Counted from the stretch's first letter, positions 3,176 through 62,814 are shown. The stretch is DNA of 64,000 nucleotides from Nitrososphaerales archaeon (GCA_030038395.1 JASHOZ010000056.1:23607-87606); one strand, 5' to 3'. Notes: generated by a model not told the origin, from the letters alone. Numbers and translations are program-made.

Positions 3176-5011
3176 GTGGAACCTTCATGCTGCAAACAGC
3201 CCAACCGGGCGGCATTGACGGCGACGAGCAAGAAGACAGTCCTAGAGCGCGAGGAGTCCAGGATCTGGCTACTGACTCTCTTAGCGGGCATCATCGGGCT
3301 GGCGGCAGGACTCATCGCCTTCGCGCTTTACCACCTCATAGGGCTCATCACGAACGTCTTCTACTATCAGAAGCCGAGTTTCTCGTTCGCTTCGCCTGAG
3401 TTCAACAACCTCGGAGTCCTAGCCATCGCGGTCCCGGCGGTAGGGGGCCTACTGGCAGGCTTGATGATCAAGTTCGGTTCGACCAAGATTACCGGCCACG
3501 GGATTCCGGAGACGATGGAGGCTGTGCTTCTGAATCGGAGCAAAGTCGAACCAAAGGTAGGTGTGCTCAAGGCGCTTTCGGCGGCTGTCACGATCGGGTC
3601 GGGGCAGCCCTTCGGAGCCGAGGGTCCCATAATCCAGACGGGCGGGGCGTTCGGCTCGTTCGTGGGACAGACGATAAGCATGACCGGTTCGGAGAGGAAG
3701 ATTCTCCTCGCGTCCGGCGCCGCAGCCGGGATGGCCGCTATCTTCGGGACTCCGATCGCCGCGGTGCTGCTCGCAGTCGAGCTGCTCTTGTTCGAGTTCA
3801 GGGCGAAGTCTCTCGTCCCAGTTGCCATCGCCTCGGCAATAGGGGCTTGGTTGCACATCTACCTGATCTCCCCCCAGCCTCTCTTCCAGACCCCTTCGTA
3901 CAGTTTCGGTGGTCTCGACTCGCTCCCGTTCTACGTCGCGCTCGGCCTGATCTGCGGGGTCCTCGGTTCCGGCCTTACCAAGGGACTGTATAGAACGGAA
4001 AGGCTCCTCGGAAAGGCCAGGCTGGGGCAGCCCTGGCTTCCTGCGCTGGGCGGACTTGCAGTCGGGGCGATCGGGTTGGCCGCCCCGCAAGTCCTCGGTG
4101 TGGGGTACAACGTGATCGCGGGCGTCTTGAACGGGCAGTACGTCCTGGACCTCGTCGTTCTACTCATAGTAGCCAAGTCGGTGGCTTGGCTCGTCGCGAT
4201 GGGTTCGCAGACGTCGGGCGGGACGCTCGCACCTCTCTTCATCATCGGGAGTTCGATCGGTTACCTGTTCGGGTCGTGGGCGGTCTCAGCCGACGTCGGG
4301 TTGGGCGTTGTCCCGGCAGTCTTCGCCGTGGCCGGAATGGCCGCGGTATTCGGTACAGCTTCACGGGCGCCGCTTACCTCGATAGTATTCGCGCTCGAGG
4401 TGACCAAGGACTACCAAGGCGTGCTTCCGGTGGTCGTAACAGTAGTGATCGCCGAGCTTGTCGGAGAAGCCCTGATGGACGAGTCGATCATGACAGAGAG
4501 GCTGGCGGGAAGGGGTCTGAGGGTCAGGAACTTCTACGAGTACAACCCGCTCCGCCAAGTCAGGATAAAGACACTCATGTCATCGCCAGCGCAGTCGGTT
4601 GACGCCGAGGAGAAGGCGGCCGTGCTCCGCAGGCAGATGTCCAGTAGCGACCACCCCTTCCGGCTAAGGAAGCGGCTCGTCGTAGTTCGGGAAGGCAGAC
4701 CGATTGGCGTGATAGAGGGGGACGACATCAACCAACCGGCGGCAGACCCCCAGTCCGTCACCGTGGGCGAAGTCTGCGGGAAGAGCTTCGAGCAGGTATC
4801 TCAGGACGAATTCGCCTACGAAGGGCTGAGGACAATGGCCCTGCGCGGCGTCTCGTTCCTGGTGGTCGTTGACAGCGAGGGAAAGCTGGTCGGCTATCTC
4901 TCTCAGGGAGACCTGATGCGGGTCCTTAAGCGCAAGATCGAGGACGAGACCATCGTCGAAGGGCCGAGATACGGCCCCGCAGCCTCTGCAGGGCCGCAAG
5001 GAAGTGGGTGA
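3176..5011 (+). CDS. ClC-family chloride channel/antiporter with C-terminal CBS pair
   Basis: Polytopic membrane protein with ClC motifs 'GSGQPFGAEGP' and 'GTPIAAVLLAVE'. The C-terminal soluble region has CBS-like 'VSFLVVVDSEGKLVGYLSQGDLM'. GTG start. Confidence 0.85.
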   Translation: MEPSCCKQPNRAALTATSKKTVLEREESRIWLLTLLAGIIGLAAGLIAFALYHLIGLITNVFYYQKPSFSFASPEFNNLGVLAIAVPAVGGLLAGLMIKFGSTKITGHGIPETMEAVLLNRSKVEPKVGVLKALSAAVTIGSGQPFGAEGPIIQTGGAFGSFVGQTISMTGSERKILLASGAAAGMAAIFGTPIAAVLLAVELLLFEFRAKSLVPVAIASAIGAWLHIYLISPQPLFQTPSYSFGGLDSLPFYVALGLICGVLGSGLTKGLYRTERLLGKARLGQPWLPALGGLAVGAIGLAAPQVLGVGYNVIAGVLNGQYVLDLVVLLIVAKSVAWLVAMGSQTSGGTLAPLFIIGSSIGYLFGSWAVSADVGLGVVPAVFAVAGMAAVFGTASRAPLTSIVFALEVTKDYQGVLPVVVTVVIAELVGEALMDESIMTERLAGRGLRVRNFYEYNPLRQVRIKTLMSSPAQSVDAEEKAAVLRRQMSSSDHPFRLRKRLVVVREGRPIGVIEGDDINQPAADPQSVTVGEVCGKSFEQVSQDEFAYEGLRTMALRGVSFLVVVDSEGKLVGYLSQGDLMRVLKRKIEDETIVEGPRYGPAASAGPQGSG

Positions 5012-6374
5012 AACAGACAGCTTGCTCCTTCAGAACTGGTGGTACACCACGCTCATCGGCACGAAGCGGTCCATCCAGCCTCCCCTCAAAGATGACAGGA
5101 GGTGCGACGTCCTTGTGATTGGCGGAGGCGCGGCGGGACTGGCGGCCGCCTCCCGGCTCGCCGGCTCAGGGAAGAAGGTCGTCCTCGTCGAAAAGAACAT
5201 CTGTGGCGGGAGCTCGACGGGAAAGAGCGCGGGGTTTCTGACTCCTGACAGCGAGTTGGAGCTCTCGCAGTTGGTAAGGCGCTTCGGCGTCCAAGGGGCC
5301 AAAGACCTGTGGGACGTTCCTGTCCGAGGGATTTCTCTGATGCTCGACATGATGAAGTCAGGAGGGTTCGACTGCGACCTGCAGAAGCAGGACAGCCTCT
5401 TCTTGGGGAAAGGGCCAAAGGGGTTCAAAGCGGTCGAGGAAGAGGCGGAGTCGAGGAGGACTCTGGGGTACGGCTCAAGGGTCTACGAGGGGAGCGAACT
5501 TGGTTCCGTGCTGGGCTCGGTGGGCTACTCTTCAGCGATAAGATACGAAGGGACGTACGGAGTAGACGGCCTCAGATACGCACAGGGGCTCAAGGGAGCG
5601 CTCCTGGACAAGGGAGTGGAAGTCTACGAGTCGTCGGAAGTCCTGAAGTTCTCCGGCCACACTGCTACGACCCACATGGGATCCGTCACTGCAGACCAGG
5701 TAGTCTTCTGCGCCGACAAGTTGAGCCCGGCCCTGAGCCCCTACTCCTGGAACGTGTATCACGAACAGACGTTCCTTTCAATTACAGAGCCGCTTAGCGA
5801 ACGGGAGCAGAGGTCACTGTTTCCACAGCAACCCCTCCAGTGCTGGGACTCGGACCTCGTCTACTCCTACTTCCGGCTCACAGGCGCCAAGAGACTCCTC
5901 CTCGGCGGGGGGAGCCTCCTGACGACTTATGCGAAGAACGATGCAACTACCGCGAGGGTGATCGACCACGTGATTGGCGGCTTCAGGCACATGTTTCCCA
6001 ACCTCGGCGGCGTCAAGTTCACGCAATATTGGATGGGGAGGATAGACATGACCCGTGACCTTCTCCCGACCGTGCTGAGGGAGCCCCGGGCCCCTTGGGT
6101 GCACCATGTCTTAGGCTGCGTCGGCCTACCATGGGCTACTTTCTGCGGCGACTTCGCTGCACGACAGGTGCTGGCAGAGAAGGAGACGGGAGACGAGAAG
6201 TACTACGCCTACTTCGACGCTGAGAGGAAATTCCTAGTCCCCATCTGGCTGGAGAGGGCAATCGGGAAGAGGCTGGCCTTTCCCATCAACAACGCCTGGG
6301 CGAAGTACTATCAACGGGACGTGAGGCACGGGCACCCGTCCTCCGCGTCGCCTTGGGCCGCTGCGTCTCCATGA
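5004..6374 (+). CDS. FAD-dependent oxidoreductase (DAO family)
   Basis: Dinucleotide-binding motif 'DVLVIGGGAAGLAAASRLAGSGKKVVLVEK'. The GTG start overlaps the ClC stop, suggesting co-transcription. Confidence 0.75.
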   Translation: MGETDSLLLQNWWYTTLIGTKRSIQPPLKDDRRCDVLVIGGGAAGLAAASRLAGSGKKVVLVEKNICGGSSTGKSAGFLTPDSELELSQLVRRFGVQGAKDLWDVPVRGISLMLDMMKSGGFDCDLQKQDSLFLGKGPKGFKAVEEEAESRRTLGYGSRVYEGSELGSVLGSVGYSSAIRYEGTYGVDGLRYAQGLKGALLDKGVEVYESSEVLKFSGHTATTHMGSVTADQVVFCADKLSPALSPYSWNVYHEQTFLSITEPLSEREQRSLFPQQPLQCWDSDLVYSYFRLTGAKRLLLGGGSLLTTYAKNDATTARVIDHVIGGFRHMFPNLGGVKFTQYWMGRIDMTRDLLPTVLREPRAPWVHHVLGCVGLPWATFCGDFAARQVLAEKETGDEKYYAYFDAERKFLVPIWLERAIGKRLAFPINNAWAKYYQRDVRHGHPSSASPWAAASP

Positions 6375-14793: not shown

Positions 14794-14908
14794 GGCCGCG
14801 GTGGTGTAGTCGGGTGGCGGATGCCACCGGCACAGCTTGGTTAACATAGGAGGCTGTGGAGCACGCGCAGTCACCTTTAGATCGTGGGTTCAAATCCCAC
14901 CCGCGGCC
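14794..14908 (+). tRNA. tRNA-His (anticodon GTG) with encoded G-1 and two insertions (D-loop ~14812-14836; anticodon loop ~14860-14872)
   Basis: Hand-folded. G-1 pairs with discriminator C73. Acceptor GCCGCGG/CCGCGGC. D-stem GTGT/ACAT encloses AGTC + 25 nt (hairpin GGTGGC-GGAT-GCCACC) + TTGGTTA. Anticodon stem GGAGG/CCTTT encloses CTGTGG + 13 nt + A. T-arm GTGGG-TTCAAAT-CCCAC. Confidence 0.8.
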
Positions 14909-42345: not shown

Positions 42346-44283
42346 TTGCCAGACGGGGAGCGAAGGCTCGCTGCCATTATGTTTACCGATATCGTCGGAT
42401 ACAGCGCACTGACCCAAGGGAACGAGGCACTAGCTATCCAGGTCCTGGAGGAGCACAGGAGGGTCGTGAGGCCCTTCCTACCGAAGCACGACGGGAAGGA
42501 AGTCAAGACGATCGGCGACGCGTTTCTGATCGAGTTCGCGAGCGCACTGGAGGCGGTCAGGTGCGCCTTCGAAATCCAACAGTCGCTCAGAGAACTGTCG
42601 TCCGGGCGGCCGCAACAGATGAGGGTGCAGCTCCGCATCGGGATTCACGTCGGCGACGTCATCCACAGCCAGAACGACGTGTACGGCGACGCGGTCAACC
42701 TGGCTTCGAGGATAGAGCCACTCGCACAAGCAGGAGGCATCTGCGTCTCCGAGCAGGTGTACTATCAGGTGAAGAACAAGTTCGAGCTGCCGCTCGTGAG
42801 CCTCGGAAGGAAGGAACTGAAAAACATCGCCGAGCCGCTGGAGGTCTTCAGGGTCGTGCTTCCTTGGGAGAACGAGCGCCAGGAGAACGGGAGTCTGGAC
42901 GGGCGGAGGCTGGCGGTCCTCCCGTTCGCGAACTTCAGCCCTGACCCGAACGACGGCTACTTCGCCGACGGCATCACCGAGGAGATCATCTCGACGGTCT
43001 CGGGCATCAGCGGTCTGAGCGTGATCTCGAGGACGTCGGTGATGGGGTACAAGGGCACCACGAAGAAGGTCAACGAGATAGGGCGGGAGCTGAACGTCGG
43101 ATCGGTCCTGGAGGGGAGCTTCAGGAAGGCGGGGAACAGGATCCGGGTGACGGCTCAGCTGATAGACGTCGCCCACGACAGGCACATCTGGGCCCAGAAC
43201 TACGACAGAGAGATGGACGACGTATTCGCCGTCCAGAGCGACGTCGCCAAGAACGTCTCCGAGGTGCTCAGGGTCAGAATCCTCTCCCCCGAGAGGGAGC
43301 GCATCGAAAAGAAGCCGACTGAAAGCTCTGGAGCATACACCCTGTACCTGAAGGGGAAGGCGTTCTGGAACCTGAGGGGCGGCGCCGACGGCCTCGACCA
43401 AGTCAGGAGGGCGCTCGACTGCTTTAGGCAGGCCGAGAAGGAAGACCCGAGCTTCGCGCTAGCCTACGTCGGCGAGGCGTCCTGCCTTCACAAGATGCGC
43501 GAGTGGGGCATCGACCTCGACGCCAACCAGCGGCAGGCTAGGAGACAGATCGACAGGGCGCTCGAGCTCGACCCGGACCTCTCGGAGGCGCACACCACGA
43601 AGGCAGCCGTCCTGACCGGCTCGAATGAACTCCGGCTGGCGGAAGTGGAGTTCAGGAAGGCGATTGAACTGAACCCCAGCAACGCGACGGCACACCATTG
43701 GTTCTTCCTGACGCTGATTGAGCAGATGCGGTGGGGCGAGGCCCTCGAGCAGATCGATAAGGCCGCAGAGCTGGACCCTCTGTCTCCCCTGATCTGCTAC
43801 GGTATCGGGCTGTACCACGAGAGCCGGGGAGACCTCCCGAAGGCGCTGGAATTCTACAGGAGGTCCCTCGAGCTGGGCGGGTCGATTATCCGCTGGGCGG
43901 CCGCCAGCGTCTACGGCCGGATGGGGATGTACGACGAAATGAGAAAGGAGTTCTCCACCTGGGTCGACGAGTTCAGGCCGGCCGCGGCTGCGAGGACTGT
44001 CGCCGACATCACGATAGCGGAGATTCTGAACGACAGGGACACTGTCGAGAGACTGCTCCCGGAGGCCGAGGCGTTCCACAGGAAGGGCGCCATCCCCTCC
44101 GCAATGGACATCGCCGACTCCTACTTCTATCTCGGCGACAAAGACAAGGGCTTCGAGTGGCTGGAGCGTTCATTCTCTCGTGGGGAGGCCTTTACGTCCA
44201 GGATTCAGATCGACCACAGCCTCGATGATGTCCGCGATGACCCCCGATACCTCGACCTTCGGAAACGGCTCGGGCTGGACTGA
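42346..44283 (+). CDS. class III adenylate/guanylate cyclase fused to TolB-N-like and TPR domains (paralogue 1)
   Basis: 'RRLAAIMFTDIVGYSAL', 'KTIGDAFLIEF' and 'GDAVNLASRIE' are metal-binding and transition-state residues. Next comes 'LAVLPFANFSPDPNDGYFADGITEEII' (TolB-N-like), then about 300 aa of TPR-like repeats. Confidence 0.85.
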   Translation: MPDGERRLAAIMFTDIVGYSALTQGNEALAIQVLEEHRRVVRPFLPKHDGKEVKTIGDAFLIEFASALEAVRCAFEIQQSLRELSSGRPQQMRVQLRIGIHVGDVIHSQNDVYGDAVNLASRIEPLAQAGGICVSEQVYYQVKNKFELPLVSLGRKELKNIAEPLEVFRVVLPWENERQENGSLDGRRLAVLPFANFSPDPNDGYFADGITEEIISTVSGISGLSVISRTSVMGYKGTTKKVNEIGRELNVGSVLEGSFRKAGNRIRVTAQLIDVAHDRHIWAQNYDREMDDVFAVQSDVAKNVSEVLRVRILSPERERIEKKPTESSGAYTLYLKGKAFWNLRGGADGLDQVRRALDCFRQAEKEDPSFALAYVGEASCLHKMREWGIDLDANQRQARRQIDRALELDPDLSEAHTTKAAVLTGSNELRLAEVEFRKAIELNPSNATAHHWFFLTLIEQMRWGEALEQIDKAAELDPLSPLICYGIGLYHESRGDLPKALEFYRRSLELGGSIIRWAAASVYGRMGMYDEMRKEFSTWVDEFRPAAAARTVADITIAEILNDRDTVERLLPEAEAFHRKGAIPSAMDIADSYFYLGDKDKGFEWLERSFSRGEAFTSRIQIDHSLDDVRDDPRYLDLRKRLGLD

Positions 44284-50785: not shown

Positions 50786-51712
50786 GTGGCAACGCTCGAC
50801 GGAGCCGTGAAGGACTACGGGTCCAAGAGAATCGGGCCGATTTCGTTCACGGTGGAGAGTGGGGAAATCATGGGGTTCCTTGGTCCGAACGGCTCCGGGA
50901 AGTCGACGACGATCAGGATGCTCTTGGGGCTGATTCGCCCGACCTCAGGGAGCGTCAGGCTGATGCAGAAGGACCCCATCAGCCAGCATGAGAAGGCGCT
51001 AGCCGATGTAGGATACTCGCCCGAGCTTCCTAACCTCCAGACCTTCCTATCACCTGCCGAACTGCTGACTCTCACTGGCAGGTTGCGCGGCCTCGACCGC
51101 AGGGCCACCGAGGATGAGATACCCCATCTTCTCGAGGACGTCGGACTCACGGAATACGAGGGCTACAAGATTTCAAGGCTCAGCAAGGGGATGGTGCAAA
51201 GGCTCAGCGTCGCGCAGGCGATGGTCGGGGCACCGAAGGTGCTCATACTGGACGAGCCGACTATCGGGATAGACCCTGCCGGCGCTGTGCACTTCCGTTC
51301 GCTGTTCAGAGAATTCGTGCGGAACGGAGGGACTATCGTAATGTCCTCGCACATCCTCTCCGAGGTGGAGGCGCTCTGCACGAGTCTCGCGGTGATCCAC
51401 TCAGGCTCGGTGGTGTACAGGGGGGAGTTGCAGAAGTTCATCCCTACGTGGGTTGGCTCTAGGACGGTGTCGATAGAACTGGGGGAAGCCGCTGACGACG
51501 GGCTCATCCAGGCGCTGTCGAAAGTCAAAGGCGTGACCAAGCTGACGGCAGAGAAGGCCAACCTGCTGATCGAGGTGTCCAAGGACAGCGATCCCAGGGG
51601 CGAGATTTCGAGGCTGGTCATCGACTCTGGCGCGAAGCTCCTCTCCATGGGCTATTCGAGAGACGAGCTTCAGGACGCGTACGTCAACTCCATGAGGGGG
51701 ACCACCGAGTGA
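50786..51712 (+). CDS. ABC transporter ATP-binding protein
   Basis: Walker A 'GPNGSGKST', signature 'LSKGMVQR', Walker B 'LILDEP'. The GTG at 50786 is chosen to avoid overlap with the upstream gene. Confidence 0.85.
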   Translation: MATLDGAVKDYGSKRIGPISFTVESGEIMGFLGPNGSGKSTTIRMLLGLIRPTSGSVRLMQKDPISQHEKALADVGYSPELPNLQTFLSPAELLTLTGRLRGLDRRATEDEIPHLLEDVGLTEYEGYKISRLSKGMVQRLSVAQAMVGAPKVLILDEPTIGIDPAGAVHFRSLFREFVRNGGTIVMSSHILSEVEALCTSLAVIHSGSVVYRGELQKFIPTWVGSRTVSIELGEAADDGLIQALSKVKGVTKLTAEKANLLIEVSKDSDPRGEISRLVIDSGAKLLSMGYSRDELQDAYVNSMRGTTE

Positions 51713-52554
51713 GGCCAGGCAGGATCCTCGCCCTGTCCCGTTACGAAATCAGGAGGGCGGTGGCGCGGAGGAAGGTCCTCGCGGTCGTCGCCCTGACCAT
51801 ACTGATCGACACGGCCCCGTACTATGCCCTTGCAGCCGCCGGCACTTCTTTGATACCCGCAACCTACCATCCCTTCCTCTGGGTCGTCGGGATTTTCATC
51901 CCACAGGCGTTCTTCCTGCAGTTCATCGCCCTCTTGATCGCGGCCGGCTCCATGTCCGAGGAGTACGAGCAGGGAACAGCGGAGGTGCTCCTTTCGAAGC
52001 CCGTCACCAGGAGGGAGTATTTCCTAGGAAAATACCTCGGAGGCTACATTCTGCTGATGCTCGTCGTCGCTCTCAACGCCGTCCTCACCGTCTCCTCCGC
52101 GACTTTCATCTTCGGCCCCCAGGCAGGGCTGCAGGTCCTCCCGCTGGTGCTGCTCGTACAGGTCTTCTCCGGATTGGTGTTCTACTCGGTGGCCTTCATG
52201 ATAGGCGAACTCGTGAGGAGGTCGTCGCTTTCGTACATCCTGTCGTCGGCCGTCTTTTTCACAAGCCAGATCGTCGGAGTCTATCTGACCGTGATATATG
52301 ACCTGACGGGACAGGCGATGTTCAAGACCGCCAGCCTGTATCTTCCGACTTCCCCGGTCGACTCTCTACCACTGTTGCTTGCCGAGCCCAGGCTCCCTGA
52401 TACGGTGCAGTTCCTGTTCAAGCTGGGAGACGTGGGCGCGGTCGAGACGTCAGCAGTCCTCTCAGCTGTGCTGATAGCTCTCTATTCCGTCAGTGCGATA
52501 GTTATCGCAGTCACGTACTTCTCCAGGGTAGACATCGCCAAGAGGATCACATGA
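51709..52554 (+). CDS. ABC-2-type transporter permease
   Basis: 6 TM helices. The GTG start overlaps the ATPase TGA (GTGA at 51709-51712). Confidence 0.7.
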   Translation: MRPGRILALSRYEIRRAVARRKVLAVVALTILIDTAPYYALAAAGTSLIPATYHPFLWVVGIFIPQAFFLQFIALLIAAGSMSEEYEQGTAEVLLSKPVTRREYFLGKYLGGYILLMLVVALNAVLTVSSATFIFGPQAGLQVLPLVLLVQVFSGLVFYSVAFMIGELVRRSSLSYILSSAVFFTSQIVGVYLTVIYDLTGQAMFKTASLYLPTSPVDSLPLLLAEPRLPDTVQFLFKLGDVGAVETSAVLSAVLIALYSVSAIVIAVTYFSRVDIAKRIT

Positions 52555-53453: not shown

Positions 53454-53849
53454 TCACCGCTGGAACAGTTTGATGCCATGCCGTCTCGCGGTCGCCTTGA
53501 GGGCTTCATCGAAGGAGTAGAGGGGGAGCTCCATCCTCCCCGCCGCGGATAGGATGATGAGGTCGTTGTATTCCAGATGGTTCCTCATCCTCGATGTCGC
53601 GAACACGAGGTCGTCCGGGGAGCATGGGACGAATGTCGTCTTCCCGTTAGTCATGTATTCCTTGACTTTCGCGTTCGCCCTTGAGACCGCAATCTTCTGG
53701 CTCCTGAAGAACCACACCAGTTCATGGAAGACCATGCTGGGGAGGCCCCATCCGTCAAGCGAGTCGAGACCAGAAGACGCTTCCATGTGGAACTCGCTGT
53801 CTTCGAACGTGTCGAACACAAGGACGTTGGTGTCGACTATCGCCTTCAA
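53454..53849 (-). CDS. vapC: PIN-domain toxin VapC
   Basis: 'AIVDTNVLVFDTFEDSE' (first acidic residues) and 'NDLIILSAA'. The TTG start overlaps the vapB TGA. Confidence 0.85.
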   Translation of the reverse strand: MKAIVDTNVLVFDTFEDSEFHMEASSGLDSLDGWGLPSMVFHELVWFFRSQKIAVSRANAKVKEYMTNGKTTFVPCSPDDLVFATSRMRNHLEYNDLIILSAAGRMELPLYSFDEALKATARRHGIKLFQR

Positions 53850-57068: not shown

Positions 57069-58997
57069 TTGTCAGATGGACAGAGGCGCTTGGCGGCGAT
57101 CATGTTCACCGACATGGTAGGCTACACCGCCCTAGGGCAGAGAAACGAGTCTCTGTCTCTCGCACTGGTGGAAGAGCACCGAAAGCTCGTGAGGCCCATC
57201 CTCGCGAGACACAACGGGAGGGAAGTGAAGACGATGGGAGATGCCTTCCTTGTCGAGTTCCCCAACGCACTAGACGCAGTCAGATGCGCCTACGACATAC
57301 AGAGGGCGGCTAGGGAATTCAACATCTCGCTCCCCGACGAGAGGAGGATACACATGCGGATAGGGGTCCACCTTGGGGATGTCGTAGAGTCGGACGGCGA
57401 CATCTCGGGAGACGCCGTGAACGTCGCTTCGAGAGTGGAGCCTCTAGCCGAGGACGGGGGCGTCTGCATAACGGGGGAGCTCTATGGCCAGGTCAGGAAC
57501 AAGATTGACCTGCGAATGTCGAGCCTTGGAGCGAAGGCGCTCAAGAATGTGGCTTCGCCGGTAGAGGTCTACAAGGTCGAGATGCCATGGGAGAGTCAGG
57601 TGGCGGACGGCGATCTCGACGTCAGGAGGGTGGCCGTCCTCCCGTTCGTCAGCCTGAGCCCCGACCCCAACGACGAGTACTTCGCCGACGGATTGACGGA
57701 AGAGCTCATCGACAGGGTGTGCCAGGTCAAGGAACTTGCGGTCATCGCCAGGACGTCTGTCATGAACTACAAGGGGGCGAAGAAGAACGCGTCACAGATA
57801 GGAAGAGAACTGAGGGCAGGCGCGCTCGTGGAGGGGAGCGTCAGGAAGGCCTCGAACAAGATCAGAGTCACGGCCCAGCTCATAAGGGCTGACACTGAGG
57901 AGCACCTCTGGTCATCGAAGTACGATAGGGACATGGCAGACGTGTTCGAGGTCCAGAGCGACATCGCAGAAAGGGTGGCCGAGGCGCTGAAGGTCCAGCT
58001 TCTCCCAGCGGAGAGGGAGGCGGTGCAGAGGAAGCCCACCGAGAGCGCAGCCGCGTACGCGCTCTATCTCAAGGGGAGATACTATTGGAATGAGAGGACC
58101 GAGGAGGGGCTGAGGAAGGCGGCCGAATACTTCCAGAAGGCGATAGACCTGGACCCCGCGTTCGCCAGGGCGTATTCCGGGCTCGCTGACACTTACTCCA
58201 TCATGAGGTTCCAAGGCTCCGCTCCCGCCCGGGAGTCGGGTGCCAAAGCCAGGGCTCTCGCGGAGAAGGCGCTGGAGATTGACGGCTCGCTCGCGGAGGC
58301 TTGCGCGTCACTGGCTTTCGTACAGGACGATGCTTTCAATTGGGAAGAGTCCGAAAGGCTCTACAGGAAGGCCATCGAGCTCAACCCAAGCTACGCGACG
58401 GGGCACTTCTGGTACAGCATCCTGCTGACGTGGCTCTGGCGGTTCGACGAAGCGGTCGAGGAGGCGAGGCGGGCGGAGGAGCTCGACCCTCTATCCCAAG
58501 CCACCTCCATCGCCCTCGGCCAAGTTCTCGTTTACGCTCGCAGGAACGACGAAGCCATCAGGCACCTTCAGGAAAGGATCAGGGCCGACCCCGGCTTCGC
58601 CTCGCCCCACTTCATACTCGGGGTCGCTTACTTCTACGGCGGAATGTACGAGAAGGCGGTCGAGGAGCTGCGCGTCGCGATCTCCATCGAGGGGCGCAGC
58701 CTCAGCCGTCCCCTGGCGGCCTTGGGGTGGTGTCTTGCCAGGCTGGGGAGGGAACGGGAGGCGAGGGAGACTCTGGAGGAGCTGAAAGGACGGAAGATCT
58801 CAAAGAGCGTCCTTGGGGCACTCTACGTGGAGCTCGGTGAGAGGGAGGAGGCAGTAAGGTGCGTCCAAGAGGCCTTCGAGGCAAGGGAGCCAGGGCTGGG
58901 CTGGATCAGCGGGATGCTCCCCCTGGATGCCCTGCGCTCTGATGCGAGGTTCGTCGCCGTGCTGGAGAGGATGAACCTGCCGACGGGTCGGCTGTAA
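57069..58997 (+). CDS. class III adenylate/guanylate cyclase fused to TolB-N-like and TPR domains (paralogue 2)
   Basis: 'RRLAAIMFTDMVGYTAL', 'KTMGDAFLVEF', 'GDAVNVASRVE', 'VAVLPFVSLSPDPNDEYFADGLTEELI' and TPR repeats. TTG start (MSDGQRRLAAIMFTD). Confidence 0.85.
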   Translation: MSDGQRRLAAIMFTDMVGYTALGQRNESLSLALVEEHRKLVRPILARHNGREVKTMGDAFLVEFPNALDAVRCAYDIQRAAREFNISLPDERRIHMRIGVHLGDVVESDGDISGDAVNVASRVEPLAEDGGVCITGELYGQVRNKIDLRMSSLGAKALKNVASPVEVYKVEMPWESQVADGDLDVRRVAVLPFVSLSPDPNDEYFADGLTEELIDRVCQVKELAVIARTSVMNYKGAKKNASQIGRELRAGALVEGSVRKASNKIRVTAQLIRADTEEHLWSSKYDRDMADVFEVQSDIAERVAEALKVQLLPAEREAVQRKPTESAAAYALYLKGRYYWNERTEEGLRKAAEYFQKAIDLDPAFARAYSGLADTYSIMRFQGSAPARESGAKARALAEKALEIDGSLAEACASLAFVQDDAFNWEESERLYRKAIELNPSYATGHFWYSILLTWLWRFDEAVEEARRAEELDPLSQATSIALGQVLVYARRNDEAIRHLQERIRADPGFASPHFILGVAYFYGGMYEKAVEELRVAISIEGRSLSRPLAALGWCLARLGREREARETLEELKGRKISKSVLGALYVELGEREEAVRCVQEAFEAREPGLGWISGMLPLDALRSDARFVAVLERMNLPTGRL

Positions 58998-59110: not shown

Positions 59111-60001
59111 ATGCAGTCTTCGAAGTCATACCTCGTCGTCCCTGCCCGGATGAACAACGGCTCCGTCGAAGCCTGGAGCACCAAACGGCTGCCGCCCGAG
59201 CCGAGAGGAGAGTTCCGGTCGATGCGCGACGAGATCGGCAAGGCCGTGGCCGAGCTCGAGTGCGGGCCTGAGCAGGTCCTACATGGCACCTACATGTCCA
59301 GCGTCAGTGAGAGGCAACCCATCGACACGGAGAACACGCTCTTCTACAACGTCCCGACCAACTGCTTCGCAAAGTCTGCCCGCGTGGGGATTAAGTTCGA
59401 AAGGGTCTTCGCGGCGCCCCCTCTGGCGCCTCATCCCATGGGCTCGCGGGCGCTGCACTACCAGTCATACCGGCTGCTGAACAGGAGGGCCGCCTTCTCC
59501 AGCTGGTCCCTCGCCAACGTCGCGGCCTCCTTCAGCGGGGTCAGGTGTCGCTCGACATCGGTGGAAGCTGTCTGGGAGGCCATGAGAGGAGACCGAGAGC
59601 TCGCAGTGGCCACCGGCAGCCTGGGGAGCTACTTCGGGCTCAGCGTCACTGTCCGACCGCCGGCAGGAACGGCCCCTCTCAACCTCGTGAATCTCCTCAA
59701 ACCTGTTTTCGACGGCGTGGTCTCGTCCTTCCACCAGCACGACGGGACAGACGACGCGGAGCTGGGTCGGCGGGTCGCGGGTAGCTTGGAGAGCGAGCCG
59801 GAGAGGGTTTCACAGCTCCTGGTGGATGGCAGTCAGGCGGTACTTGGGAGTAGGAGGCTTCTCTGGAGAAGAGGCGACGGGGTCCAGTGGGGACCCGCCG
59901 ACGACCGGTGCGTGGCGGGGGAACTTCTTCTCGGAGAAGTGTCGGAGGGCGGATTCTACGAGTTGTCGGGGAAGCTGACGGCCGCAATTGCGACCTCCTA
60001 G
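59111..60001 (+). CDS. hypothetical protein (orphan, host-like GC)
   Basis: 296-aa ORF with balanced composition and no motif I recognise. Confidence 0.5.
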   Translation: MQSSKSYLVVPARMNNGSVEAWSTKRLPPEPRGEFRSMRDEIGKAVAELECGPEQVLHGTYMSSVSERQPIDTENTLFYNVPTNCFAKSARVGIKFERVFAAPPLAPHPMGSRALHYQSYRLLNRRAAFSSWSLANVAASFSGVRCRSTSVEAVWEAMRGDRELAVATGSLGSYFGLSVTVRPPAGTAPLNLVNLLKPVFDGVVSSFHQHDGTDDAELGRRVAGSLESEPERVSQLLVDGSQAVLGSRRLLWRRGDGVQWGPADDRCVAGELLLGEVSEGGFYELSGKLTAAIATS

Positions 60002-60072
60002 GCGTAGAAGCGAATAACTGGACGGGCCGAGTCTAGCTTATTGCTTAAAGTGCGCCTTGACTCGCCCTTGGA

Positions 60073-60456
60073 TTGGTATCTGACTTGGACGACGCCACCG
60101 CTCGGGTAGTTGAGCTGAAGCAAATGGTAAAGCAGTTCAGCGAAGATCGAGACTGGGACCAGTTCCACAGCGCAAAAGAGTTGGCGATCGGCATAGTCAC
60201 CGAGGCCTCCGAATTGCTAGGGGAGTTCAGGTTCAAATCCGATGCAGAGGTGGACGAGCTCCTTGGGAACAAAACCTCCGCCAAGAGAGTCAGAGACGAA
60301 CTCGCCGACATCCTCTACTTCGCGCTCAGACTTGCTCAGAAGTATGACATCGACGTATCGAACTCGCTCGAAGAGAAGATCACCCAGAATGCCGCGAAGT
60401 ATCCAATTGATAGGGCACGAGGCTCAAACAAGAAGTACACCGAACCCAAAGCATGA
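60073..60456 (+). CDS. MazG-like all-alpha nucleoside-triphosphate pyrophosphohydrolase
   Basis: 'FSEDRDWDQFHSAKELAIGIVTEASELLGEF' and 'VRDELADILYFALRLAQKYDID' form the ExxE...ExxD metal-binding helices of the MazG/dCTPase-type family. TTG start. Confidence 0.8.
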   Translation: MVSDLDDATARVVELKQMVKQFSEDRDWDQFHSAKELAIGIVTEASELLGEFRFKSDAEVDELLGNKTSAKRVRDELADILYFALRLAQKYDIDVSNSLEEKITQNAAKYPIDRARGSNKKYTEPKA

Positions 60457-62318
60457 GACTCTATACAGGCTCCTCTGAGCAGTTCATTCAAGACATCCTT
60501 GAGAACAAGCTGGCCGACAAGCTCAGGACGGCATACGAGAGCTACTACTACCGCCTTGCGAGCCCCCAGGAGGTCGTTTCATGGACCAACTCTCTTCAGT
60601 TTGTAAAGAACATCATCGAGTATGCATCCCTAAAGGACAACGTGCTGGTGGTGGAGTACGAGCTTCCCTACTCGAACCGTCGGATTGACTGCCTTCTATT
60701 CGGCAAAGGGGTGGATGCGTCACCCAACGCGGTAATCATGGAACTCAAACAGTGGTCGAAGGTCGAGAATTGTGATCTCGAGAACGAAGTGCTGACTTTC
60801 ACTGGAGGCGCGAACAGACTCGAGGCTCATCCCTCTTTCCAGGCTCAGGGGTACTACTCCTACCTGAAGGACTTCGTCGAGGTCTTCGGGAACAGCACCA
60901 TTAACCTTTCAGCAATCAGCTACTGTCACAACTATTCTCGCGCTTCGGATGCCATGTTCGGCCCCAAATTCCAGTCGATAGTCAAAGACTTCCCTCTGTT
61001 CGCCAAGGAAGATGTACCGGAACTTGCGAAGTACCTGAAGGCACGGCTATCAGCTGGCGACGGCCTAGAGATTCTCAGTAGATTCTCGAGCAGCCCGATA
61101 GGGCCGACAAAGAAGCTTCTCGAGCACACATCGACGATGATTAAGGGGCAAAAAGTATTCAACCTGCTCGAGGACCAGCTGGCAGCGTACTATGCCATCC
61201 TAGACAGAGCGAAGAAAGCCTCCAAGCTGAAACACAAGTGTGTGATTATAGTCCGAGGCGGCCCCGGGACTGGCAAGTCGGTCATAGCTCTGAATGTGAT
61301 TGCCGAACTACTCTCGAAGGGACAGACGGTCTTCCACGCCACAGGGTCAGCTGCGTTCACTAGCACACTCAGGAAGATAGTAGGAACCAGGGCAGCGAGC
61401 ATGTTCAAGTATTTCATCAGCTTCACCAACGTAGAGGAGAACTCAATAGACGTTCTCGTGTGCGACGAAGCCCACAGGATAAGGGCCAAGAGCGTCAGCA
61501 GGTTCACCCCGAAGGCTGAGAGGACGGACAAACCGCAGATTGACGAACTCATCGAAGCCGCCAAGGTTTCGGTCTTCTTCATCGACGACTACCAGGTGGT
61601 CAGGCCGTACGAACATGGAAGCACTGAGATGATTCGCGCCTCTGCAGCGAAGCACTTCGCCGAAGTCTTCGAGTTCGAGCTCAAGACACAGTTCAGGTGC
61701 AGCGGTTCGGGCGGCTATCTCGACTGGCTGGACAATGCGTTGGGCATACGAGAAACCGCGAACATAATGCTGACTAAGAACGAGAAGATGGACTTCCAGA
61801 TATTCGACAGCCCTCACAAGCTTTACGGGGCGATAAGACGGAAGAACGATGAGAAGCCCAACTCCGCCAGAATGGTCGCAGGCTTCTGCTGGCCCTGGAG
61901 CAATCCGAAATCTGACGGAACCCTGGTCGAGGACGTTGTCATCGGAGACTTCCGAATGACTTGGGAGGCAAAGAACGACATGAAGGTGGCTCCGGGTATC
62001 CCTCCGGCGAGACTGTGGGCTTACGACCCGCAAGGAGTGAGCCAGATGGGGAGTATCTACACCATCCAAGGGTTCGAGTTCGACTACGTTGGCGTAGTCT
62101 TTGGCGATGATTTGTCATGGAACCCCGAGTCCAGAACCTGGACCGGGAAACCTCAGAACTCCTCGGACGCTGCGGTGAAGAGGGACAAGGAGAACTTCGT
62201 TCGATACGTCAAAAACGCCTATCGCGTACTACTCACCAGGGGAATGATGGGGTGTTACGTATACTTCGTCAGCAAGGACACTGAAGACTACTTCAGATCT
62301 CTCATCCAGACGAGTTGA
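60453..62318 (+). CDS. DUF2075-type protein: N-terminal PD-(D/E)xK-like module plus Schlafen/SF1-like P-loop helicase core
   Basis: 'RRIDCLLFG...AVIMELKQW' (D...ExK), Walker A 'GGPGTGKS', 'VLVCDEAHRI' and C-terminal 'YRVLLTRGMMGCYVYF'. The ATG overlaps the MazG stop (ATGA at 60453-60456). Confidence 0.8.
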   Translation: MRLYTGSSEQFIQDILENKLADKLRTAYESYYYRLASPQEVVSWTNSLQFVKNIIEYASLKDNVLVVEYELPYSNRRIDCLLFGKGVDASPNAVIMELKQWSKVENCDLENEVLTFTGGANRLEAHPSFQAQGYYSYLKDFVEVFGNSTINLSAISYCHNYSRASDAMFGPKFQSIVKDFPLFAKEDVPELAKYLKARLSAGDGLEILSRFSSSPIGPTKKLLEHTSTMIKGQKVFNLLEDQLAAYYAILDRAKKASKLKHKCVIIVRGGPGTGKSVIALNVIAELLSKGQTVFHATGSAAFTSTLRKIVGTRAASMFKYFISFTNVEENSIDVLVCDEAHRIRAKSVSRFTPKAERTDKPQIDELIEAAKVSVFFIDDYQVVRPYEHGSTEMIRASAAKHFAEVFEFELKTQFRCSGSGGYLDWLDNALGIRETANIMLTKNEKMDFQIFDSPHKLYGAIRRKNDEKPNSARMVAGFCWPWSNPKSDGTLVEDVVIGDFRMTWEAKNDMKVAPGIPPARLWAYDPQGVSQMGSIYTIQGFEFDYVGVVFGDDLSWNPESRTWTGKPQNSSDAAVKRDKENFVRYVKNAYRVLLTRGMMGCYVYFVSKDTEDYFRSLIQTS

Positions 62319-62569
62319 GCTCTGATGCCGCAAGTCTGAAACTCAGAAATCCTACTTCAGTCACCGAGAGTTCTATGCAATCAGATGGACAGTCGACACA
62401 TCGCAATTGTGACAGTTTCTGGTCGAAGAAGTATCTGCGGTGTTCGACAGTAATCACAGGCAACCTCTTTGGAGATGTCATGTCTGGATACATCATGACA
62501 CTACTTAGCACCCAGCCATCTTGCGAGGCTTTTCGCAAGAGAAGCACTCGGCTTGAACCAGAGACTGAG

Positions 62570-62712
62570 TGCCGCGGGTCGGATTTGAGCCGACGACACT
62601 CCGGTCTTTAGCCCGACTTGCGCAGTCGATCAGCCGGATGAAGGAGACAGAACACCAGTTGGTGGATTCCGTTCTCTCCATAGCCCATATCGACAGGCTG
62701 AGCTACCGCGGC
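62570..62712 (-). tRNA. tRNA-like gene, candidate tRNA-Ile(GAU) carrying at least two insertions (143 nt), or a pseudo-tRNA
   Basis: Perfect 7-bp acceptor GCCGCGG/CCGCGGC with discriminator A, and 'TA GCTC AGCCTG' as the D-arm start. Anticodon stem TCCGG/CCGGA encloses CTGAT + ~22 nt. Variable loop GTGTC, T-arm GTCGG-CTCAAAT-CCGAC. I could not fold the D-arm 3' strand, and the T-loop starts with C instead of T. Confidence 0.5.
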
Positions 62713-62814
62713 ACGGTTCGCGACGACCTCTTCGCGCTGACTTAAGACTTTGCGCCATCGCAGAGGTTGCACGGCAACGGATTTATCGAAGAGAGAGCCG
62801 GCCAAGAGTCAATC

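Follow-up and report, generated by a model that had tools for sequence, protein, structure and literature searches.

A stretch of 64,000 nucleotides (nt) from a Nitrososphaerales archaeon (referred to below, at its full length, as the window) carries, near its 3' end, two adjacent genes encoding a small MazG-like protein and a 621-amino-acid (aa) protein that combines a predicted nuclease domain with a DUF2075 helicase domain. This pair recurs in archaea and bacteria, and the two proteins are co-inherited. It is probably an Nhi-like nuclease-helicase with an added nucleotide-hydrolyzing partner, an unnamed module, and on balance we favor the view that it serves in defense against viruses or plasmids. 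A two-gene defense system had already been proposed in the initial annotation of the window. Conservation of the adjacency, base composition and genomic context all support this proposal, while the antiviral activity and the role of MazG stay at the level of prediction.

The two open reading frames (ORFs) were found where the initial annotation had placed them, coupled by the ATGA at 60453–60456, in which the MazG stop overlaps the start of the helicase gene. The 127-aa product of the first gene matched the Pfam MazG-like family PF12643 (2e-13, 50.8 bits, with a cutoff of 27), and its best sequence match in PDB was mouse/human dCTP pyrophosphatase 1 (DCTPP1, RS21-C6; E = 2.1e-16, residues 14–124). 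The PHROG pyrophosphatase family was matched at 2.3e-11, and far weaker matches were obtained with dimeric dUTPases and with MazZ of phages. The acidic residues, earlier described as intact, are also conserved: the metal-binding EXXE (E44, E47) and EXXD (E76, D79) motifs are kept in at least 90% of 67 operon-linked homologues, as are F22, R26, W28, H32, K35, F52 and the C-terminal KY. Because of the DCTPP1 match and the conserved metal-binding pairs, the protein is very probably an active all-alpha nucleoside triphosphate (NTP) pyrophosphohydrolase of the DCTPP1 type. DCTPP1 hydrolyzes dCTP, favoring 5-modified dCTPs. It aligns end to end with the window protein and shares with it the EXXE and EXXD motifs and a WxQFH segment, but is longer (170 aa versus 123–127 aa), and only the window protein is operon-coupled to a nuclease-helicase.

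The 621-aa protein matched positions 1–352 of the 354 in PF09848 with its residues 262–605 (4.9e-91, 306 bits, with a cutoff of 24), in agreement with its earlier assignment to DUF2075 and the Schlafen group-3 helicases. In an alignment of 15 sequences (homologues 60–91% identical to the 621-aa protein), E68, D79, E97, K99, G269–S276, C337–R344, R596 and G597 were invariant. Each of the motifs quoted in the initial annotation (RRIDCLLF...VIMELKQW, GGPGTGKS, CDEAHRI and VLLTRG) contains some of these residues. Walker A (GGPGTGKS), Walker B (CDEAHRI) and motif VI (LLTRG, with R596/G597) were near-invariant in 48 homologues. Because the confidence of the full-length AlphaFold model is moderate (predicted local distance difference test, pLDDT, 67), this model was used only for structural matches of the helicase core. 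The best match in PDB was human SLFN11 (1.4e-9), and SLFN14, coronavirus nsp13, RecD2, Dda, Pif1, Dna2 and Upf1 were matched as well. These matches, led by SLFN11, place the modeled core among the SF1B-like helicases (superfamily 1B) of the Schlafen type.

Residues 1–245 of the 621-aa protein had no Pfam match. The AlphaFold model of this N-terminal region (pLDDT 88) predicts an alpha-beta-beta-beta-alpha-beta core, in which D79 lies just before strand 80–85 and E97-x-K99 ends strand 91–99, followed by a helix and a strand. Foldseek searches with the nuclease domain gave weak matches, mostly to proteins with the restriction-endonuclease fold. EndoMS/NucS (E = 0.027–0.028, probability 0.84–0.91) was joined by FokI, Cap4 and type II restriction enzymes, and by viral PD-(D/E)XK proteins with E values of 2.5e-3 or weaker. 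The combination of the D...ExK motif with the topology of the model led us to accept the domain as a divergent PD-(D/E)xK nuclease. No modified-base reader domain was detectable in the 621-aa protein.

The distribution of the pair was analyzed in a collection comprising one genome per species (185,579 species), in which at least 540 stretches encode a relative of the 621-aa protein. The best 80 of these were examined as loci. Going by their record titles, they originate from 35 archaeal and 45 bacterial genomes, all encode full-length proteins (46–91% identical to that of the window), and they form the best-scoring subset of a larger family. ORFs in the loci were called mechanically, and MazG genes were sought by tblastn with the window protein and with a hidden Markov model built from the resulting matches. 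Among the candidates scored, 5,298 relatives of the 621-aa protein were found at E 1e-10 or better, the best of them (60–93% identical) in metagenome-assembled genomes of Nitrososphaerota, Bathyarchaeia, Aenigmarchaeota, Diapherotrites and Thermoplasmatales.

Of the 80 loci, 66 encode a MazG-like protein together with the helicase; as three MazG-negative loci have less than 240 nt of upstream DNA, the fraction among evaluable loci is 66 of 77 (86%). In 57 loci, the spacing of the genes falls between −4 and +8 nt, with ATGA overlaps in 19 of them and 2-nt spacers in another 19; a single locus has its MazG gene downstream and on the opposite strand. The distance matrices of the two proteins were correlated across the 57 tightly linked pairs (Mantel r = 0.41, a value reached in none of 2000 permutations). 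The pairing of MazG with the helicase is not a matter of chance. The initial annotation had named conservation of this adjacency in other genomes as a test of its proposal, and the adjacency was found to hold in both domains of life.

Clustering of the 926 ORFs from the 80 loci left MazG and the helicase as the only families common to most of them, and a third universally conserved gene was rejected on this basis. DNA homology between the window and its closest relative, L001, is confined to 60037–62518 (84% identity), and that with L014 and L081–L084 to the two genes only. Because DNA homology to relatives stops at the cassette, we take the two-gene cassette to be the unit that is conserved and moved.

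The pair also stands out by its base composition. The G+C content (GC) of the cassette is 0.533, whereas the window averages 0.606 (SD 0.0215 among equal-sized windows; z ∼−3.4), and no other 2.2-kb stretch of the window has a lower value. The low-GC patch noticed in the initial annotation is thus real, but the figure of about 70% given there for a neighboring gene is too high, the GC of the flanks being 60–65%. The GC of the cassette is also below that of the flanks in 48 of 67 loci (median difference −0.031, Wilcoxon p = 9e-8), so the deviation, earlier based on spot counts, holds on full calculation both within the window and across these loci.

The large proteins of bacteria and archaea are ∼50% identical. 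Copies of the pair are present on plasmid 1 of Halalkalicoccus jeotgali B3 (genes for a nucleotide pyrophosphohydrolase and a DUF2075 protein, 5 nt apart), on a plasmid of Priestia aryabhattai NM1_A2 (NZ_CP083270, 36.9–39.1 kb), and in the record of Microcystis phage Mwe-JY31; the large protein is 33–35% identical in these copies. By these comparisons, the pair is horizontally mobile, accessory and very patchy in distribution. The plasmid and phage copies would also be expected if it served the mobile element itself, in replication, recombination or the exclusion of competitors, with MazG adjusting nucleotide or alarmone pools or countering host defense. Such a role has a parallel in the phage MazG-like protein Atd1, which depletes (p)ppGpp as an anti-defense measure (10.1101/2022.06.09.495361), and it would account for recurrent neighbors of a kind common in mobile elements (genes for RadC-JAB, Cas4-like nucleases and DUF4143 ATPases, and the casposon-like PolB and Cas1) and for the transfer RNA (tRNA) 3'-half fragment beside the window copy. 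We nevertheless consider it unlikely. In the window, in L014, in L081–L084 and in many other loci the pair stands alone, surrounded by unrelated chromosomal genes and without integrase, replication or structural genes, and defense genes are commonly the cargo of mobile elements. Moreover, the restriction-modification (RM), BREX and methyl-directed nuclease neighbors, together with the precedent of Nhi and Nhi-like, fit host defense better.

Some copies in mobile or mobile-like settings have arrangements of their own. MazG-less copies of Acidobacteriota (L074, with Cas1 at 4370–5920, L024 and L025) have a casposon-like setting, lying beside Cas1 and/or family-B DNA polymerase genes. On the Hymenobacter plasmid, both DUF2075 copies are found beside a DNA methyltransferase and a DUF4747 protein.

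The genes adjoining the pair were surveyed as 122 immediate neighbors, which gives a crude estimate of enrichment, made without a genome-wide background. These neighbors vary but do not appear random, and include HNH nucleases, Cas4-like nucleases, the PADLOC candidates PDC-S01/02/13 and, as single cases, BrxP, DrmMII, type IV restriction enzymes and several methyltransferases. SRA-HNH proteins are encoded in or adjoining 8 of the 80 loci, and also in L081–83, which were reached via the MazG homologue; MTaX1-HNH proteins were found in 6 loci. RadC-JAB genes are located near the pair in 9–10 loci and genes for Cas4-like PD-(D/E)xK nucleases in 5–12, and ParE, Fic and DUF4143 ATPases are further recurrent neighbors. 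In L001, the divergent gene encodes a protein combining McrB-N (DUF3578) with a NucS/YhcG PD-(D/E)xK domain, matched by PADLOC as PDC-S02 at 2.9e-48. The order on the Priestia plasmid is restriction endonuclease, MutT, DUF3578 protein, MazG, DUF2075 and a type I RM system, and on a Streptomyces plasmid a DUF3883 protein is encoded 5' of a MazG-less copy. The frequent putative methyl-DNA-directed nucleases among the neighbors fit a modified-DNA theme.

The flanks of the pair vary from locus to locus. A conserved housekeeping context, which according to the initial annotation would speak against a defense role, was not observed; the pair was found instead among variable flanks, on plasmids, in a phage record, and beside nuclease, RM and BREX genes. 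A function in housekeeping or stress, apart from any conflict with viruses, could draw on several observations. MazG would then cleanse the pool of nucleotides while the helicase-nuclease served DNA repair or the response to replication stress, much like DCTPP1 and SLFN11 in mammals. DCTPP1-type enzymes, to which the MazG protein is clearly related (2.1e-16), are house-cleaning enzymes, a MutT gene is located near the pair on the Priestia plasmid, and the S24 domain fused to ∼17 bacterial homologues hints at a link with RecA and the SOS response. In addition, helicase domains of the SLFN11 type bind single-stranded DNA at stressed forks (PMC13056530). We judge this function very improbable in view of the very patchy distribution, the ∼50% cross-domain similarity, the aberrant GC, the variable flanks and the plasmid copies, and because the neighbors are mostly nucleases and RM-type genes, not repair genes.

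The ∼17 bacterial homologues just mentioned carry a C-terminal LexA-like Peptidase_S24 domain and are ∼795–825 aa long (L034, L049, L068; P0075, P0076, P0089). In P0075, the S24 sequence includes the serine motif GKSMEP and the lysine motif LKRY. Tandem DUF2075 paralogues, one of ∼795 aa with S24 and one of ∼660 aa, are present in L037, L055, L056 and L087. In three loci (L019, L023, L043) a RadC-JAB gene is placed between the MazG and helicase genes, forming a three-gene operon, and RadC adjoins the pair in about six more. The S24 fusion suggests RecA-stimulated self-cleavage as a form of control, and the fused S24 domains, taken together with the inserted RadC-JAB genes, hint at proteolytic control.

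Proteolytic release of activity, as suggested by the S24 fusions or inserted RadC-JAB peptidase domains, would also suit a toxin-antitoxin or abortive-infection module. The nuclease-helicase would then be the toxin, restrained by MazG or by a 64-aa protein encoded beside the window copy, e.g., through removal of an activating nucleotide. The close translational coupling and the leading position of the small gene, familiar from many toxin-antitoxin operons, are in line with this, as are the ParE and PIN modules near several loci. We regard such a module as quite improbable: at least ten loci and two plasmids carry the helicase gene but no MazG gene, which makes obligate toxicity of the unpartnered helicase unlikely, and the conservation of the MazG catalytic residues speaks for MazG acting as an enzyme and not just as an inhibitor.

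Among known systems, the closest in architecture are Nhi (Staphylococcus epidermidis SERP2475) and Nhi-like (Millman et al. 2022), single-gene proteins shown experimentally to defend against phages, in which, as in the 621-aa protein, an N-terminal PD-(D/E)xK-type nuclease is joined to a DUF2075 SF1 helicase. The PADLOC models of Nhi and AbiO matched the helicase core of the 621-aa protein (4.5e-12 and 5.4e-12, respectively). A full-length match to Nhi (PDLC02372) or AbiO was not obtained, residues 253–415 being aligned with positions 198–329 of the 470-position model at 43 bits, and nine relatives gave the same picture. For the nuclease domain of the 621-aa protein, no sequence match was detectable. 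Moreover, Nhi and Nhi-like have been described as stand-alone genes, whereas the family analyzed here has a coupled MazG gene in 86% of the evaluable loci and, unlike them, is abundant in archaea. The link of Nhi-like with DNA modification is echoed by the methyl-directed nucleases found beside the window family.

The best PADLOC match of the 621-aa protein was PDC-S41 (PDLC05014, 657 positions; 3.5e-24, 83 bits), which is of similar length and was aligned in two partial stretches; in relatives, either residues ∼4–320 or ∼530–615 align with it, and in some of them the N-terminal region and the C-terminus both do so colinearly. PDC-S41 is a single-gene candidate, and PADLOC contains no MazG model. 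Because the ∼620-aa proteins of the window and nine relatives reach only 44–83 bits with partial coverage, PDC-S41 appears to be a distant sister family and not the family itself.

The helicase domains of SLFN11 and SLFN14 belong to the same family, PF09848, as that of the 621-aa protein, and SLFN11 is its top structural match. The Schlafen (AlbA_2-type) RNase domain is absent from the 621-aa protein, which has a PD-(D/E)xK nuclease instead, and the bacterial Schlafen defense proteins described in 2025–2026 are defined by this RNase domain and not by a DUF2075-type helicase (PMC13056530). The type IV restriction enzymes SauUSI and McrBC likewise combine a nuclease with an NTP-driven motor, and the frequent proximity of the window family to SRA-HNH, MTaX1-HNH, McrB-N/DUF3578 and DUF3883 proteins is a further echo of type IV restriction. 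DUF2075 genes beside the modification-dependent enzyme McaZI have been noted previously (PMC6765204). A search on MazG or DCTPP1 in connection with DUF2075, Schlafen, Nhi or defense, made in a literature library with few subscription journals and no supplementary candidate lists, found no paper on the pairing, which may nevertheless have been listed elsewhere.

We favor an antiviral function because the pair is shared by distantly related archaeal and bacterial lineages, frequently with restriction enzyme genes as neighbors. The mechanism proposed here is modeled on the precedent of Nhi and Nhi-like, on the escape of phages from Nhi-like through loss of a DNA methylase (10.1101/2022.08.27.505566), which implies sensitivity to modified DNA, and on the prediction that MazG-like domains are NTP-targeting effectors in dNTP-depleting defense systems (10.64898/2026.01.15.699771). 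The 621-aa protein would be an ATP-driven SF1-type translocase-nuclease that loads on foreign DNA and degrades it. Its MazG partner, which may cooperate with it physically, would hydrolyze (d)NTPs to monophosphates and could thereby (a) destroy non-canonical or modified dCTP-type nucleotides needed by the virus, or (b) block the re-incorporation into host DNA of modified nucleotides released from foreign DNA, which would otherwise turn the nuclease on the host.

A more specific version, which we put forward tentatively and consider doubtful, is that the pair is a widespread, cross-domain modification-sensing restriction module with a nucleotide-pool safety valve. The motor-nuclease would destroy modified foreign DNA, methylated or hydroxymethylated for instance, often alongside a reader nuclease of the SRA, MTaX1 or McrB-N type, and the DCTPP1-like enzyme would hydrolyze modified dCTP, whether needed by the virus or derived from salvage of the degraded DNA, keep it out of host DNA and so prevent autoimmunity.

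Besides the crude enrichment estimate of the neighbor survey, several observations weigh against a two-gene defense system and the mechanism outlined above. Ten evaluable loci lack any MazG gene, and so do the plasmid copies of Hymenobacter and Methanosphaera, while in an eleventh locus, L012, a 24-aa remnant is all that is left of it; some lineages can therefore do without the partner. The MazG proteins match no PADLOC model, and the dCTP-type substrate is predicted from the similarity to DCTPP1. The link with modified DNA draws on the neighbors in ∼20% of the loci and on one literature point concerning Nhi-like, which is not orthologous. Finally, the window is not a dense defense island: its copy of the pair is an isolated insertion, as judged from its ordinary neighborhood of cyclase-TPR genes, an ABC transporter, HMG-CoA synthase, peptidase M3 and one PIN gene.

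It should be noted that the small enzyme occurs in other company as well. In L085 (5001–6712), a MazG protein 59% identical to that of the window is encoded in the order HNH_5, MazG and an unannotatable 448-aa protein, near a KwaA (Kiwa) gene. Given this gene order near KwaA, small MazG enzymes may pair with other large proteins in defense contexts.

The coordinates of the features of the locus are collected in Table 1. TTG 60085 is more probably the start of the MazG gene than TTG 60073, as judged from the conservation of TTGGACGAC in relatives. A TTAAAG-like element and the TTGGACGAC start are common to the window, L001, L014 and L084, and in the window CTTAAAG is located 33–39 nt 5' of TTG 60085. 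The region preceding the MazG gene is thus a probable archaeal operon promoter by its sequence features.

Table 1. Features of the MazG/nuclease-helicase locus (window coordinates)
Feature	Coordinates	Strand	Remarks
Candidate operon promoter region	60037..60072	+	TATA-like CTTAAAG at 60046-60052; DNA homology with L001 starts at 60037
MazG-like gene	60073..60456	+	127 aa as called; 123 aa from TTG 60085
621-aa nuclease-helicase gene	60453-62318	+	Encodes both domains
Putative PD-(D/E)xK-type nuclease domain	60453..61172	+	Residues 1 to ∼240 of the 621-aa protein
DUF2075/Schlafen group-3 SF1-type helicase domain	61236..62267	+	Residues 262-605; PF09848
64-aa conserved gene	62302..62496	-	Convergent with the helicase gene, 17-nt overlap at the 3' end
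tRNA 3'-half fragment	62570..62594	-	T-arm, acceptor 3' strand CCGCGGC and discriminator base
Low-GC patch holding the cassette	60000..62750	.	Sliding windows 0.51-0.56 inside, 0.60-0.65 outside

The 64-aa ORF overlapping the end of the helicase gene had no Pfam match. A word-index search found no homologue of it, but when 1.84 billion representative proteins were searched exhaustively with HMMER, 12 relatives were identified, mostly of 59–64 aa. In 10 related archaeal loci, relatives with 40–68% aa identity (tblastx, jackhmmer) are encoded no more than ∼600 nt away from the pair, either convergently downstream or co-directionally upstream, and the closest library relative, P0241, has the same 17-nt convergent overlap with a partial gene at the contig end. 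The proteins share the motif P-x-R-L-P...Y-F-F-D-x-R-L-x-Q-L-R-x-V-x-x-P-H-D-F. The ORF is regarded as a real clade-specific accessory gene, and its product as a candidate, and in the proposed mechanism a probable, accessory component or regulator in the Nitrososphaerota-type clade.

The larger surroundings are much as first described. The pair is flanked by cyclase paralogues, a cyclase-TPR gene upstream (57069–58997) and a cyclase-like ORF downstream from ∼62.8 kb, and a PIN-domain (VapC-like) gene was found 6.2 kb upstream (53454–53849), where a VapBC module had been reported about 6 kb away. Three class III adenylate/guanylate cyclase-TPR paralogues are located on the plus strand within 22 kb (42346–44283, 57069–58997 and from ∼62800 to the window end), the cassette lying between the last two. 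A 296-aa ORF (59111–60001, plus strand) separates the cassette from the upstream cyclase gene and has no match in Pfam, PADLOC, NCBIfam or PHROGs. This ORF was left out of the module because its GC is host-like (∼64%) and it is absent from related loci. ABC-transporter genes near the L014 cassette (425–1822), which is located on a Nitrososphaerales chromosome, show 67% DNA identity to window positions 50873–52277, compared to 76% for the cassette, a likeness that may reflect loose synteny or paralogy.

The tRNA-like gene placed directly 3' of the pair in the initial annotation was not recovered: ARAGORN, Rfam at gathering thresholds and a permissive Rfam scan of 59–64 kb revealed no intact tRNA beside the cassette. 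What is present, ∼250 nt downstream, is a fragment of ∼25 nt, identical at 17 of 18 positions to the 3' terminus of an intron-containing tRNA at 14795–14908; the T-arm of the fragment shows a compensatory stem change. DNA homology with L001 fades at the position of this fragment, which is possibly an integration-site remnant. A search for attachment (att)-type direct repeats around the low-GC patch yielded no match longer than 9 nt, a length expected by chance. A tRNA gene lies within 600 nt of the cassette in 3 or 4 of 60 other loci, and tRNA proximity was dropped as evidence because this is not clearly above expectation. The tRNA at 14795–14908 (plus strand, 114 nt, 42 bits in Rfam) was missed by ARAGORN, presumably due to its intron, which fits an archaeal genome.

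Nucleotide depletion is a known defense strategy in its own right, separate from nuclease-helicase defense. If our interpretation is true, one operon would join the two, and the system would allow one to ask how nucleic acid-degrading defenses escape shifts in the nucleotide pool or turn them to advantage. The pair spans Nitrososphaerota and DPANN archaea as well as Bacillota, Acidobacteriota and Omnitrophota, and experiments are made feasible by its cultured carriers Priestia aryabhattai, Parageobacillus caldoxylosilyticus (NBRC 107762) and Halalkalicoccus jeotgali. To our knowledge, few defense systems have been characterized in archaea, and the pair adds a candidate to them. Humans have homologues of both components in DCTPP1 and in the helicase domain of SLFN11, and the pair, if it is the modification-sensing module outlined above, would be a prokaryotic counterpart of human genome-guardian activities, with DCTPP1 and an SLFN11-type helicase united in a single unit.

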